DNA from: a candidate division WS6 bacterium OLB20 | GTDB lineage: Bacteria > Patescibacteriota > Dojkabacteria > B142 > OLB20 | NCBI GenBank assembly: GCA_001567355.1 | Contig: JYNZ01000003.1 | Span: forward strand, 338,263-402,262 | DNA length: 64,000 nt | Reading direction: 5' to 3' | Part shown: piece by piece, positions 30,168 through 46,090 of the stretch | Position numbering within the stretch: position 1 is the stretch's first letter | Layout: each line of letters opens with the position of its first letter | Program-made: the position numbers and the translations under genes | The notes under the pieces: model-generated | The model's database searches: none | What the model was told of the DNA's origin: nothing | The model's input: the letters and a program-made list of their open reading frames with translations, nothing else

Positions 30168-31001
30168 TCAGTATCCCTGAGGATGCTGCGGCGAAGCGGG
30201 TGCGGGCTGCGCCGGAGGCTGGATCGGTTGCTGTCCAAGGCTCCCGCCCAGCGACAGTTTTGGTGCGAAGGTATCCTCAAGTCCACCGGTACGTGGTGCC
30301 GCCTGGTCTACCACATTTATATGCCGGTTTGTGCCGGTTGCATCAGTGTCGGGATCTGACTGCTGCTGATCCGTAAGGGTTGCGGTATCAGGTTGTGCGG
30401 ATGGCGTGCTCATGTCAGTATTGGTTTGTAACAACTGCGTCTCGGCCGGAGCTGAGCCGTTCAAGGTTCCATTTTTTGCAAGATTCTCAAGTTCAGAGTG
30501 CGTGAGCACCGGTTTCCCTGAAAGTTGGTTAACCTGCTGCTGCAGACGGACAATATCCGGTCCGATCTCTTTCATAAGCTCAATAAGTTCTCTACCAAGC
30601 TTGTCCTCTTCAGGGTTGGCAGTTTCAAGTTTTGCAAAATAATCCTCAAGCTTCTGTCTTTTGGCAGCCTCCAGTCCAGGCAGGTAGTCTTCGTACAGTG
30701 ATTCAATAAAGTCAGTGCGAATCGAAGCCAGATCATTAATCACTGCTTCTTCACCAAGTATCTGCTTCACTTCAGTGAAACGTACATCCGACTTAAGTTC
30801 ATGTGTAATGTCATCGCTTTCGATCAGCTGCTCTGCGTATTCCTCATCGACTCCTCGCTGAATAAGCGTCTGACCTGCAAACAACTGCTGAGCTCTGGCA
30901 ATCAGCCACTCGATCTCAGCATATTTATCCCCAGCTTCAGGGTCTTCCAGCCCGGTAAGCAGTTGAAGAACGTACTCATCAAGATACTGTTTATTTATCA
31001 T
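30168..31001 (-). CDS. hypothetical protein with a Q/P-rich C-terminus; last gene of the large-protein block
   Basis: 277-aa ORF abutting 31004-33610. Confidence 0.45.
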   Translation of the reverse strand: MINKQYLDEYVLQLLTGLEDPEAGDKYAEIEWLIARAQQLFAGQTLIQRGVDEEYAEQLIESDDITHELKSDVRFTEVKQILGEEAVINDLASIRTDFIESLYEDYLPGLEAAKRQKLEDYFAKLETANPEEDKLGRELIELMKEIGPDIVRLQQQVNQLSGKPVLTHSELENLAKNGTLNGSAPAETQLLQTNTDMSTPSAQPDTATLTDQQQSDPDTDATGTNRHINVVDQAAPRTGGLEDTFAPKLSLGGSLGQQPIQPPAQPAPASPQHPQGY

Positions 31002-31003
31002 TG

Positions 31004-43400: not shown

Positions 43401-46090
43401 TGCGCCAGGTTAATTGCCCTAGCAACAGTCTTTGGTTTTAAGACACCAGATAATTCGTTTTGAGAGACATATCCCCCACCCGTCTCTAGCTTCTGCTCCA
43501 AATAAGCATACTTTAGATAACTGCTAATAATCTTTTCTCTAATGGTTATCCGGTCTTCAGCCAACTGCTTGTATGTTTCGTGCTCGTGCTCGGAAGTTGC
43601 CCAGTCGAGTCGATTAAACCGGGAAACATGTTGATTAAACAGTTCAAGTGCCTCAGGATCTGGTTGACGGTCTACCAAAGTAAAGGGGCTTAAAGGTCCT
43701 ATTTTCGTAGCGTAATGCGAAATTAGGAAATGTCTTGTCTCTGGTTCCCCCCATGGTTGATCGGCAATCAAGATGTCTACCTCTTCAGTGCGAAGTTTTA
43801 TATAGTTTGGCCAGCTATAAACGAGAGCATCTTTCGACGCGTAGGTCATTTCGCCGAAAGTAGAGTTAAACGATCGCATAATATGTGAGGGTATAGACAA
43901 ACCTTGCTGCCTAAGTTGCAAGTACTCCTCTAAGGCCTTTGCTCTGTATATTGTGTCAAGTTGCGAATCAATCAAAGTCAACCCTTCTAGCTCCTCAGAC
44001 GTCATATCTAGACCTCTTATAGAATCGGATCCCACAAGACATCTAGCAGCAGTTGCGTTCGGCATTATTGGAAGCTTCCCATCTTTATACCTGCTGTCCA
44101 TTAATACCTGAATTATGTAAGATCCCCACTCTTTATTTATCAGAGCAGGTGTGTCCAGCTCATTTGATCCGAACCCCATGCCTTTTCGGTCACTCTCAGG
44201 TCCCAGATCGTACAATGATTCCCTGTATCGCATATGAGATTCATTTCTCGATGAAAGTCTACCTGAGGTTACCAGTGAAGCGTCCTGATATATTCTAACT
44301 AGCTGAACCTTCTGATCATCACTCAGACCCAAGACTGTTTCCTCTAACCCCTCATATCCATACAATAGACCCTGTGCAGCAAGGGAAGATAAATCAGTAG
44401 AGATGCCATATTCCTTTTCCAGTATCGCTGCAAGCGGCAATGTATCTTCATAGGTTGGAGTCGTAGGGATTGCGACTCTCATAGCCACAGAATCTGTTAA
44501 TGCATCGAGCAACCCCCTCCACTCACTATCAAAATCAATTATCCTGTTCCTTCTTGCAGTAATCTTTTCGGGATCCTCTGTCCTATTTACTATTAACATT
44601 CTTTCTGTGTAATCAGACCCGTAGCTAAGTAAAGCAAGCGAAACGAGCTCTTGGTCTATAGGAGAGTCTCCATCGTAATACCGAGAAATCTTTGACAGCA
44701 TCTTTCGTGTCATCAATTTTTGGAGACGGGGATCTGCATCCCTTGCTGACACAGGCAACAATACTTGTTCCCAGGTACCTATCAATACACTCTCCTCTTC
44801 CGGTGTTAATTCTTGAAACAACTCCGGGTGATCAGCTCTCAGTTTCTCAAAGCCGGCATCCCATACCTCCACCACATCTGTTGTCATATCTATATATGCT
44901 GCTTTTTGTTCATCTTCCAATTCAAGACCAGACCTATCTTTATCCTGGAGGAAACGTTGCGTAGCAATACTTGTTGGTTGTTGTTTACCGTAATCGTCAT
45001 GTTCGACCATGAAGTAATTTGCGCTTCTTCTCTCTGGTGTTAACAGACTAGTGTCAACAAGAACTCTCGGATAGAAATCCAGTTTTCCGCCTTTGGTGAA
45101 ATTTTCGATTTCTGGATCCCGTTTATGACCTCTTGAGACTACATCTGTAACTGCCCGCAAAGCGTTGAGGGCGAGCGACTTTCTCACCAGATCAGTAATT
45201 ACTCCTGTATCTTTCAACTGCTGAGAGATTTGACCACGCTCGAGGTGACGCTTATACCTGAGCAACTGCAAGTACTCACTGGCTGAGCTTGCAGATTGCA
45301 TAGCCTCAACTACCTCAGGGACACTCGTCTTTTCTAGATATGAATCTGTAAATTGGTAAACATCCTTATCACCGTGCATAATCCAATCGGTGACTTCAGT
45401 AGGAATCTGTACATACTCTCTGTCAGTTCCAGCAAGTGGACGTTCGTCATCAAACATTATTCGCTTAAGATGGTTGATTCTATCAGTGAGAAAGGGGTGA
45501 CTCCCCGAAGAATTATCACCATATTGCTGACGAAATACCTCTAAGACATCAATCATTGCTCTGGGGTTGTATCCAGCCTCGGCTATCTGAACCATTGCCA
45601 TACGATCGGACTGATGTTCCTCTGCATGACCAGCAGCCTTATACGTTAAGGCATTCCTGATTTGTTTTTGATCAGACTTTTTCTCCAGACCCTGATTTCT
45701 TATCGCATGATTTTCTTCGTGAGCGAGGAGGGCAGCAATATGATCTTCGTGGACTTCAAAACCTATTTCCTGCATACGCGCAAGAAGGCCTCTGCTTAAT
45801 AGTGTCACCCTTGCGAAAGTAGCGTTGTATGCGGTAGCCTGGTCACTATCCAGACAAACGAGAGTGCTCTCGCTATGGTGCAATTTGTCATAAATGCTTG
45901 CAACAAGTCTATGGAATGGATGCTGAGGATCGAGTGGTTCTCCTGAATTAATACTTACTGATTCAATATGCATTGATGAGAGAGAGCTTCCCTTCTCCTG
46001 CTCCGATATTGATTGAACATTCTGTTCCACCTTTCCCTCTGAGAAGTCTCTAGTAACCGGAACAAGTGTATCCGTCATGAAGATATTCAA
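40430..46090 (-). CDS. giant multidomain protein (1886 aa): N-terminal M48-like Zn-metalloprotease, long central region, C-terminal ABC1/UbiB-type atypical kinase
   Basis: HEENH followed by EEHQSDRMAM...AEAGYNPRAM, which is M48/BepA-like. The C-terminus has the VGKFKRP region, HADLHPGNIFVD and IDLG, which is UbiB-like. Composition is AT-richer than neighbours. Confidence 0.6.
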   Translation of the reverse strand: MNIFMTDTLVPVTRDFSEGKVEQNVQSISEQEKGSSLSSMHIESVSINSGEPLDPQHPFHRLVASIYDKLHHSESTLVCLDSDQATAYNATFARVTLLSRGLLARMQEIGFEVHEDHIAALLAHEENHAIRNQGLEKKSDQKQIRNALTYKAAGHAEEHQSDRMAMVQIAEAGYNPRAMIDVLEVFRQQYGDNSSGSHPFLTDRINHLKRIMFDDERPLAGTDREYVQIPTEVTDWIMHGDKDVYQFTDSYLEKTSVPEVVEAMQSASSASEYLQLLRYKRHLERGQISQQLKDTGVITDLVRKSLALNALRAVTDVVSRGHKRDPEIENFTKGGKLDFYPRVLVDTSLLTPERRSANYFMVEHDDYGKQQPTSIATQRFLQDKDRSGLELEDEQKAAYIDMTTDVVEVWDAGFEKLRADHPELFQELTPEEESVLIGTWEQVLLPVSARDADPRLQKLMTRKMLSKISRYYDGDSPIDQELVSLALLSYGSDYTERMLIVNRTEDPEKITARRNRIIDFDSEWRGLLDALTDSVAMRVAIPTTPTYEDTLPLAAILEKEYGISTDLSSLAAQGLLYGYEGLEETVLGLSDDQKVQLVRIYQDASLVTSGRLSSRNESHMRYRESLYDLGPESDRKGMGFGSNELDTPALINKEWGSYIIQVLMDSRYKDGKLPIMPNATAARCLVGSDSIRGLDMTSEELEGLTLIDSQLDTIYRAKALEEYLQLRQQGLSIPSHIMRSFNSTFGEMTYASKDALVYSWPNYIKLRTEEVDILIADQPWGEPETRHFLISHYATKIGPLSPFTLVDRQPDPEALELFNQHVSRFNRLDWATSEHEHETYKQLAEDRITIREKIISSYLKYAYLEQKLETGGGYVSQNELSGVLKPKTVARAINLAQQNGIGCVVGDYVVATSLGINYGNSIIMQYIREADPDDLELVASSIGRGPEKGGIQIQDYIYAMSAVKRRGANNGDLAILMQSMLSGSEFGNNPFGSGVIRDVLDIYGGPENTLKFVTSRTESSYYLARVGALAVQKLSPERRIEGYRSWMSWMVSQGIPVDAAVDFSSLKTKHARTTAFYPHTEHERFLKRFDRHELITTTQGDFDDLFTRRMPFHSTGMTVDDFHVVSGKNSAVFPGFRDYYHNRIDELRSQGLITRDTKFSDYPYTARPELVGSAPQQIVAEMLQRSLDYLQSDALLEERLAVVNEVCPLPALAKDIHLERMLRESLQKEPVEMLREVDLLIPLFSSKELLTQYMESIITRRLESGLYSTDESVELVLEFFPEASLSRNSLLDNIVETSRVSTELLTRVASLRLSEEFEDEQSDEASPAMSIMNHALNTTKRKERRETVLWLLRMQQKPKHVDIQEVRLDGSLGSAPTAFLTMNELQRTEVIERLLLGSQGVMEVLTDQKQQATITEALEERKLFLDRFAEVLIPDSISQYALFRDVFVSVMEESDPVRSTQIIGKLINKKIEAEKAGRKLEPEQALADALCLAGVVGKKVAQSLAELDIDEKYKQALALSQEQADAVPKRAQYELAKQEGLISGVHGIRIVSFGDNIGAASNKQASIVTIEIVDQEAADHFGVEIGDQIEAVGKFKRPSAQKVDNLRNDLRILNGVMRVLERHNVAQELPPNFVDQIRIAVEGELKFAAEAVFNERVSNNISRRPTFGSLKLQTPDVLFASDNVIIETRAPGRSLRSLADGGEHIDLVQKARGAVLSEIIYELLETGEIHADLHPGNIFVDPDTDTLTFIDLGMNVTISNERLPQVRKLFVGLLLGDRKRIADSLIDLGWNADVSKMDVAGKGAFRGAAGMLIKRLSGGRVNTETSLDTVFVNNIMSLLRASQLTESPPPEDVSLLIFALSKMEPYMSAATVPNLLRIARRVASSK

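Follow-up and report, generated by a model that had tools for sequence, protein, structure and literature searches.

The window analysed here is a 64-kb stretch of the genome of OLB20, a bacterium of candidate division WS6 (Dojkabacteria) within the candidate phyla radiation (CPR), and our subject is a block of minus-strand genes (30168-46090) that lies directly upstream of the 23S rRNA gene. The first-pass annotation had named this block as the best candidate in the window for an undescribed system; our analysis does not support a single unit of seven genes. We favour instead, with a probability of about one half, a composite, lineage-specific island of three unrelated pieces, which would have accumulated in the former 16S-23S spacer of the single rRNA (rrn) operon, all of them in the direction of rRNA transcription, and which do not form one demonstrable system. 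Numbering the genes G1 to G7 from 46090 to 30168, with G3 standing for G3a and G3b together, the first piece, G1, would be a stand-alone member of a rare cassette in which an M48-type metalloprotease is joined through a helical linker to a UbiB/ABC1-type kinase. The second piece, G2, is predicted to be a working aspartate ammonia-lyase/fumarase-type enzyme and a housekeeping passenger, and the third, G3a/G3b-G4-G5-G6-G7, may be a lineage-specific operon with translational coupling from G4 to G7. All features are on the minus strand unless stated otherwise.

The relatives of these genes are found in different company. At 24 loci related to G1, no homolog of G2-G7 was detected (tblastn, E ≤ 0.1), and the neighbours of the G1 homologs are unrelated, being thioredoxin-like, RNR and LDH genes at one locus and RecQ, MazG and radical SAM genes at another. 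The genes are thus scattered in relatives as far as G1 is concerned, whereas G3 and G4 stay together on another contig, L027 (see below). G2 is an ordinary aspartase-type protein. Inside the block, an all-versus-all BLASTP comparison of the proteins gave no match, and a profile-profile comparison of the G3 and G1 families with hhalign found them unrelated (probability 0.06).

It could still be argued that the whole block (G1-G7) is co-regulated and works as one undescribed system, by which an episymbiotic CPR cell would interact with its host and in which a protease-kinase regulator and an enzyme act together with structural or effector proteins. The genes are tightly packed in one direction without terminator-like sites, the non-enzymatic members are extremely rare, and CPR bacteria are thought to depend on hosts (discussed in bioRxiv 10.1101/705046). 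However, relatives of G1 never occur beside homologs of G2-G7, the G3 homolog on L027 follows a gene that encodes no lyase or kinase, the block has yielded neither signal peptides nor genes of a secretion system, and the GC content at third codon positions (GC3) is heterogeneous among its members (0.35-0.53). Nor does the shared orientation count for much, as co-directionality is the norm across the window: nearly all genes between 26.5 and 64 kb are on the minus strand and the GC skew is negative throughout, and the co-directionality of the block is therefore uninformative. We consider a single system quite unlikely.

The block was originally described as seven genes, and we find eight open reading frames (ORFs), the ~1600-aa protein of that description being encoded by two overlapping ones. 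A codon log-odds model was trained on the 34 long ORFs of the window that lie outside the block; by this measure each block ORF scored above zero in its called frame and below zero in the five alternatives, and since the signal is confined to the called frame, these ORFs are real coding sequence, or were so until recently. Gene calling on independent assemblies yielded eight genes of 1882, 425, 1001, 647, 98, 122, 845 and 277 aa. The same 19.3 kb was found with 0 mismatches in an unrelated Sequence Read Archive (SRA) run, and two further runs gave identical gene calls. The NCBI annotation lists G1 as 'protein kinase UbiB' (100% identical) and G6 and G3a as hypothetical proteins (TR69_WS6001000748 and ...752, respectively). 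All block proteins are acidic, with isoelectric points of 4.3-5.8, and by hydropathy none has an N-terminal hydrophobic signal.

G1 (40430-46090 as an ORF of 1886 aa opening at TTG 46090; 40430-46078, 1882 aa, from the ATG) had been described as a protease-kinase fusion, and this description holds. It consists of an M48-like metalloprotease, a helical middle region of ~1300 aa and a UbiB/ABC1 atypical kinase. The peptidase region (45434-45901, residues ~60-215) is marked by a Peptidase_M48 match (PF01435) over residues 155-210, which scores 30.2 bits against a cut-off of 20.3 and spans just profile positions 137-184, the C-terminal quarter of the model. It also carries the zinc-site motif HEENH (H120, E121 and H124) and, downstream, an acidic motif (E153/E154...D158). 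The HExxH residues H120, E121 and H124, together with E153/E154, are invariant in P0001-P0003, which make up the three-member alignment A1. G1 thus resembles the M48 zinc metallopeptidases (HtpX, BepA, Oma1 and the plastoglobule protein PGM48) in its HExxH and downstream acidic motifs and in a Pfam score above threshold, but it lacks their membrane anchor and aligns to that last part of the model only.

The kinase-like domain (40679-41641, residues ~1480-1800) was also identified with Pfam, where ABC1 (PF03109) covers residues 1594-1783 at 65.7 bits against a cut-off of 22.9. Its motifs are GKKVAQSLAE, GAASNKQ, KFKRPSAQK, HADLHPGN and IDLGM; conservation in A1 extends along the whole length, with GKKVAQSLAE, GAASNKQ, KxKRPSAQK, HxDxHPGN and IDxGM as invariant kinase motifs and D1728, H1730, N1733 and D1747 as invariant residues. 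The C-terminal ~320 aa therefore resemble the UbiB/ABC1/ADCK family (PF03109; E. coli UbiB, COQ8, plant ABC1K, and M. tuberculosis Rv3197, PDB 5yjz, which is also the single PDB sequence match of G1), keeping the HxDxHPGN catalytic loop, the DxG, the Lys-containing strand, the Ala-rich loop and a KxxxQ resembling KxGQ. Unlike in that family, the domain ends an 1882-aa protein, is fused to a protease and matches the UbiB equivalog only in part (TIGR01982, 66.8 bits against a cut-off of 487.55, profile positions 142-340; NF003404, 32.4 against 667, again with partial profile coverage). Hydropathy finds no transmembrane (TM) segment in G1, and the C-terminal TM helices of the UbiB type are thus missing. 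To our knowledge, ubiquinone synthesis is not expected in CPR bacteria. Judged from its sequence, G1 has both sets of catalytic motifs intact, and it may be a soluble, self-contained protease-kinase (or protease-ATPase) regulator.

Relatives of G1 are few. The large protein-database searches covered G1, G3a and G6 (5.8 billion clusters) and G3b (1.84 billion representatives), and for G1 they returned P0002 and P0003 alone, with 27-28% identity and lengths of 1833-1849 aa. When 185,579 species genomes were scanned with A1, full-length relatives were found only in rumen Elusimicrobia/Endomicrobiaceae, at five loci and with 22-24% identity (L006, 5114-21058; L008, 1226-24196; L007, 4004-18943; L009, 3347-18970; and L005, which is partial). 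In these Endomicrobia (Ca. Ruminimicrobiellum and relatives) the M48 and ABC1 parts are colinear with G1 and comparably spaced, but the cassette sits within stop-free ORFs of 4980-7667 aa with ~30% GC, which carry a signal-like peptide and TM helices ahead of the M48 part, whereas G1 is the cassette alone and looks soluble. In L006, the M48 part lies near aa 1614-1686 and the ABC1 part near aa 2783-3000, and the remaining thousands of residues of this giant ORF have no Pfam match; L008 carries each of the two domain matches twice, alternating as M48, ABC1, M48, ABC1. The signal-like N-terminus occurs in the L006, L007 and L009 ORFs, and internal TM helices occur in all four, L008 included.

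G1 has a GC content of 44% and a GC3 of 0.38, compared with ~0.5-0.6 for most genes of the window, and it adjoins a Y1_Tnp gene on the opposite strand (46276-46902). Because of this low GC and the adjoining Y1 transposase-like gene, acquisition of G1 by horizontal transfer is plausible, though not proven. The pairing of its two domains has a parallel elsewhere: ABC1 kinases and an M48 protease reside together on the lipid droplets of cyanobacteria (cyanoglobules) and plants (plastoglobules) (PMC12223511). G1 resembles a 'Rosetta-stone' fusion of this pair, although a functional link would be drawn by analogy only, as nothing evident in the window points to lipid droplets or prenylquinones. The mechanism of UbiB/ABC1 proteins is not settled. 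Through an M48-ABC1 fusion, the cooperation of the two families, so far suspected and unproven, becomes open to test, and the cassette, together with its presence in the giant Endomicrobia proteins, is the most interesting concrete lead to come from the block.

G2 (39128-40411 as an ORF of 427 aa; 39128-40405, 425 aa, as called) is, as first described, a member of the fumarate-lyase family (Lyase_1, PF00206, E 2.6e-63). Among the NCBIfam models it comes closest to aspartate ammonia-lyase, at 370 bits (NF008909, cut-off 510), and it also stays below the fumarase/aspartase cut-offs (TIGR00839, 301 against 681; TIGR00979, 269 against 665). The best PDB match is the aspartase AspB of Bacillus sp. 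YM55-1 (1j3u, E 1e-74), with which G2 aligns end to end, keeping the three signature regions SQSTND, THLQDAVP and GSSIMPGKNNP, the catalytic SS loop included. It differs from aspartate ammonia-lyase and class II fumarase in being ~20 residues shorter at the N-terminus and in falling below the NCBIfam cut-offs. No close relative of G2 was found among the 185,579 species genomes. G2 is a divergent but ordinary-looking enzyme of the class II fumarase/aspartase superfamily, whose substrate is not certain.

The third piece begins with G3, which had been taken for one acidic protein of ~1600 aa; this holds for the ancestral gene, and not for its present form, which is divided between two ORFs in different frames. 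G3a spans 36095-39100 as an ORF and 36095-39001 (968 aa) in the NCBI call; G3b spans 34207-36150 (647 aa), with its ORF open to 36168, and its frame is +1 with respect to that of G3a. The frame break lies within a shared stretch of 80 nt (36095-36174) where neither frame is closed; this stretch has a T5 run, and in it G3a stops in the context AGG-TGA. An exhaustive HMMER search with G3b retrieved one other protein, P0007 (1262 aa, E 1.4e-24), whereas a word-indexed search with G3a retrieved only itself. P0007 aligns at residues 163-531 with G3a 467-884 (E 2e-17), at 687-761 with G3b 121-196, and at 876-1191 with G3b 264-584 (E 3e-26). Because P0007 is colinear with both halves, G3a and G3b are one ancestral gene of ~1580-1610 aa with an acidic helical product, which has been split by a change of frame.

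The sequence at the break is identical in the Logan assemblies from SRR29904084 and SRR29904086. With identical sequence and gene calls in separate SRA runs, sequencing error was rejected as the cause of the split; a break found again in independent data belongs to the organism itself. It is not accompanied by any evident recoding signal of a known kind. The split G3 may be made as two polypeptides or may be restored by recoding. The likely start of G3a is the ATG at 38944, preceded by AGGTG, which leaves ~183 nt between G2 and G3a; if G3a starts there, this gap would be enough for a separate promoter.

P0007 lies on L027, a contig of 5.2 kb with 39% GC, and the 90-aa ORF directly downstream of it is a homolog of G4 (33854-34150), a 98-aa acidic helical protein. 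The two are 27% identical over 78 aa, with a BLASTP E-value of 3e-5 and a Smith-Waterman score of 81 against a shuffle mean of 25.8 +/- 4.5, a score that 0/2000 shuffles reach. The next small ORF on L027 takes the place that G5 has in the block and overlaps the G4 homolog by 4 nt; the contig ends within this ORF, which shows no detectable similarity. G3-G4 thus appears to be the only conserved unit in the block, shared with this one other contig, and it would be the conserved core of the G3-G7 set. No further locus of the G3 family came from a scan of Joint Genome Institute (JGI) metagenomes with alignment A2 or from the back-translated pattern HRxDFGxLxDxAA. Upstream of P0007, positions 2-877 of L027 encode the C-terminal 291 aa of a further protein, which matches nothing in Pfam and resembles nothing in the window; in that organism, this orphan may go together with the G3-G4 pair.

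The frame break invites another explanation, by which G3-G7 are decaying or functionless lineage-specific ORFs in a small genome dominated by drift, with the break in G3 as the first visible lesion. Homologs of these genes are almost absent, and at least two housekeeping genes of the window, encoding ClpC and an ATP-dependent DNA ligase, are also frame-split, which fits either relaxed selection or tolerance of split genes. Against decay, no further stop interrupts the ORFs of 968, 647 and 845 aa, their in-frame codon usage is like that of the host, the Shine-Dalgarno sites and coupled starts are intact, and the NCBI assembly and several Logan runs agree exactly in sequence. G3 and G4 are moreover still ~27-30% identical to their homologs in an organism whose GC content, at 39%, is very different, which argues for past purifying selection. 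We regard decay as unlikely.

The window thus holds three frame-split genes in 64 kb (G3, DNA ligase and ClpC), a number that points to a genome in which split genes are tolerated, recoding is used or decay is under way. In the DNA ligase (57445-59201), the N-terminal domain is encoded at 58608-59201 (197 aa) and the adenylation and OB domains by a second ORF at 57445-58617 (390 aa), with both frames open at 58608-58680; the same two genes were called in the independent run SRR29904083. The ClpC-like ATPase (16393-19175) is divided into a D1 part (17376-19175) and a D2 part (16393-17379), and the frame of the D2 part, the downstream one, stays open for 112 nt within the ORF of the D1 part. As such splits are seen again in independent samples, the organism either tolerates or exploits split genes or recoding, or accumulates lesions.

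The remaining genes of the third piece agree with their original descriptions, which listed two small proteins (G4 and G5), an 868-aa repeat/TM protein (G6) and a 277-aa Q/P-rich protein (G7). G5 (33486-33854) is an acidic protein of 122 aa, whose start overlaps the G4 stop by 1 nt and is preceded by GGAG. G6 (31004-33610 as an ORF of 868 aa; 31004-33541, 845 aa, from the called ATG) overlaps G5 by 56 nt, and G7 (30168-31001, 277 aa) starts 2 nt past the G6 stop with a strong GGAGG 9 nt upstream; because of these start/stop overlaps and the 2-nt gap, G4 to G7 may be read as translationally coupled. Within the G5/G6 overlap (33486-33541), where A6 and C5 runs occur, G6 is in the +1 frame relative to G5, the same geometry as in G3a/G3b, and G5 might not be a gene of its own but the N-terminal part of G6, cut off by a change of frame. 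G6 itself is an Ala/Arg-rich, all-helical protein with three gapless repeats of ~70 aa (residues 104-174, 238-308 and 416-486; 32-41% identity). It has a TM segment at residues 712-740 (31322-31408), flanked on both sides by Arg/Lys and followed by a helical tail of ~105 aa, and by hydropathy it is the only block protein with such a segment. G7 consists of a helical N-terminal domain and a Q/P/T-rich tail of low complexity.

None of G3-G7 has a significant family match in Pfam, NCBIfam, PHROGs or PADLOC, and G3a, G3b, G5, G6 and G7 have no match among PDB sequences, in agreement with the initial impression that, apart from the enzymatic domains, no recognisable family is present. Weak Pfam hints to Sec7 (G4), Trypco2 (G5), and UBA_6 and UPF0181 (G6) are below threshold and were set aside. 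A PDB match of G4 to protein-A repeat constructs (E 3e-8) was rejected as an artefact, in which five ~8-bit matches to a repeated 'AFYEILHL' helix are summed, each with an i-Evalue of at least 19; this motif is not kept in the L027 homolog. Among the 5.8 billion clusters G6 retrieved only itself. Structure prediction was uninformative. The AlphaFold2 (AF2) model of G6 is all-helical, with a mean confidence (pLDDT) of 65 and a pTM of 0.29, and Foldseek gave it only generic, non-significant alpha-solenoid matches (TM-score ~0.1, E ≥ 0.019), while the model of G3b, built from a two-sequence alignment, is unusable (pLDDT 44). G3-G7 are orphans whose function is beyond the reach of sequence tools; CPR genomes are rich in unmatched genes.

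The form of G6 recalls a phage tape-measure protein with G/GT-type chaperones, as it is long, Ala-rich, helical and repetitive, has a hydrophobic TM segment, and comes after two small ORFs that overlap. The block, or G3-G7 within it, might accordingly be viewed as a mobile-element or prophage remnant of an unknown CPR virus beside tRNA-Ala, with G6 as a tape-measure-like or internal-virion protein and G4/G5 as chaperone-like proteins. A tRNA gene and a Y1 transposase-like gene do lie just upstream, the composition of G1 is atypical, and its kinase domain matches one PHROG, of unknown function. The resemblance of G6 is in layout only, however: no capsid, portal, terminase, integrase or tail genes were found in the block. 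PHROG matches are not significant for G5 and G6 (best E 0.026-0.043) and absent for G3, G4 and G7, a tblastn search of 50,697 phage records with G3a and G6 gave nothing, and neither did scans of IMG/VR with G3b, G6 and G7. Nor is the 3' end of tRNA-Ala repeated in an att-like manner, its sole second copy being another tRNA gene, and the Y1 paralogs are 55% identical with no terminal repeats. On these negative results we rejected a phage or mobile-element origin, and consider the remnant scenario very unlikely. The block does not qualify as a tRNA-integrated genomic island either, having no repeat of the tRNA 3' end and, in Pfam-type scans of the block and its neighbours, no integrase domain. 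An anti-phage defence system was likewise ruled out by PADLOC, whose sole match was that of the G1 kinase loop to PD-T4-6 (13 bits, E 0.012).

Returning to the composite island that we favour, one may envisage how its third piece would be arranged in the cell. According to this model, drawn from features of the protein sequences, G6 would be a tail-anchored alpha-solenoid with one C-terminal TM helix. Its repeat domain would stay in the cytoplasm, since export is unlikely for an N-terminal domain of this size that has no signal peptide, and the other acidic helical proteins would assemble on G6 at the cytoplasmic face of the membrane. A role at the cell surface, which had been raised among the possibilities, is not supported, as the block proteins have no signal peptides and the sole TM segment lies near the C-terminus of G6.

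Several points weigh against the island as we describe it. The synteny comparison has low power, given that G1 has seven relatives, all below 30% identity, and that the single relative of G3 sits on a contig of only 5.2 kb, which breaks off inside the gene that follows the G4 homolog. The spacing between the pieces (24 nt for G1-G2; 27-183 nt for G2-G3a, depending on the G3a start), with no terminator-like site between G1, G2 and G3a, is close enough for a single transcript. The AF2 models, with pLDDT values of 65 for G6 and 44 for G3b, lend no direct support to a complex on a cytoplasmic scaffold, the TM and signal predictions are simple hydropathy heuristics, and the break in G3 could mean that the G3-G7 module is decaying.

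Nothing in the block contradicts known features of CPR genomes, and as a 'system' it matters little at present. A wider significance, to which we give a small chance only, would follow in either of two cases: G3-G7 could be a new membrane-tethered intracellular apparatus of a few deep-branching uncultured lineages, built around a G3-G4 core, or the M48...ABC1 cassette could be a new unit that couples a UbiB-type kinase/ATPase to an M48 protease. If the latter were true, the cassette would be direct genetic evidence for the ABC1K-M48 partnership, which has so far been inferred from co-localisation in plastoglobules and cyanoglobules.

The location of the block follows from the state of the rrn operon. 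The 16S (54771-56277), 23S (26833-29844) and 5S (26566-26682) rRNA genes were identified with Rfam, and tRNA-Ile(GAU) (49691-49765) and tRNA-Ala(UGC) (48111-48187) with ARAGORN; tRNA-Ile(GAU) was missed by the Rfam gathering scan of the full window and scores 66 bits in a local Rfam search, and tRNA-Ala has a promoter-like site of its own (TTGAAC-18-TATAAT). The order 16S, tRNA-Ile, tRNA-Ala, 23S, 5S is canonical and on one strand, and extends over 25 kb with protein genes in every gap. MFS, hypothetical protein, ECF sigma factor and FecR-like genes lie between 16S and tRNA-Ile, and an aldo/keto reductase gene between tRNA-Ile and tRNA-Ala. Between tRNA-Ala and 23S come, on the plus strand, an unmatched 268-aa ORF (47058-47864) and the Y1_Tnp gene, assigned by family match as IS200-like/RAYT-like, followed by G1-G7. 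This opposite-strand pair (46276-47864) breaks co-transcription from the side of 16S and the tRNAs.

The 16S-23S spacer (29845-54770) measures ~24.9 kb, far above the 1500 bp up to which rRNA genes are counted as linked, and unlinked rRNA genes are common in CPR/Patescibacteria (Brewer et al., bioRxiv 10.1101/705046). OLB20 resembles these and other symbiont-like lineages in having its 16S and 23S genes more than 1500 bp apart, but differs in that the rRNA and tRNA genes have kept their canonical order and their strand while protein genes occupy each gap between them. Its rrn locus looks like an operon being pulled apart by insertions rather than by rearrangement, and the locus, dismantled with its gene order kept, illustrates a route to unlinked rRNA genes. 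The position of the block upstream of the 23S gene (rrl), to which special meaning had been attached, is explained by this unlinked, insertion-riddled operon.

The Y1_Tnp gene upstream of the block (46276-46902, plus strand) has an inverted paralog at 22845-23438 (minus strand), 55% identical, and the pair brackets 23 kb that include a histidine kinase gene and, beside the entire block, the 5S and 23S genes; terminal repeats were not detected. An inversion between the two was considered as the cause of the unlinking and was ruled out, since the order and strand of the rRNA and tRNA genes are canonical.

The block ends 323 nt upstream of the 23S gene on the same strand, in line with the ~320 nt first estimated. 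This spacer (29845-30167) has no terminator-like hairpin and contains weak promoter-like hexamers (TTGACA at 29987-29982; TTGTAC-18-TATTAT at 30127-30098), and the sequence speaks neither for nor against read-through from the block into 23S. The 23S gene is flanked by the arms of a 35-nt inverted repeat (26802-26836 and 29844-29878), which are 74% complementary and consistent with a processing stem of the RNase III type. The 23S leader also carries a boxA-like TGCTCTTTGATAA (29947-29959, minus strand), and the related CTTTAACA and TGCTTTTGATA occur upstream of 16S (56380-56505, minus strand); these motifs may be rRNA antitermination elements, although the count of the pattern in the window is not above chance. 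Further along the minus strand, next to the split ligase and DNA polymerase I, lies a gene for a Fic/DOC-domain protein with a C-terminal DeoR-like helix-turn-helix (59222-60253).

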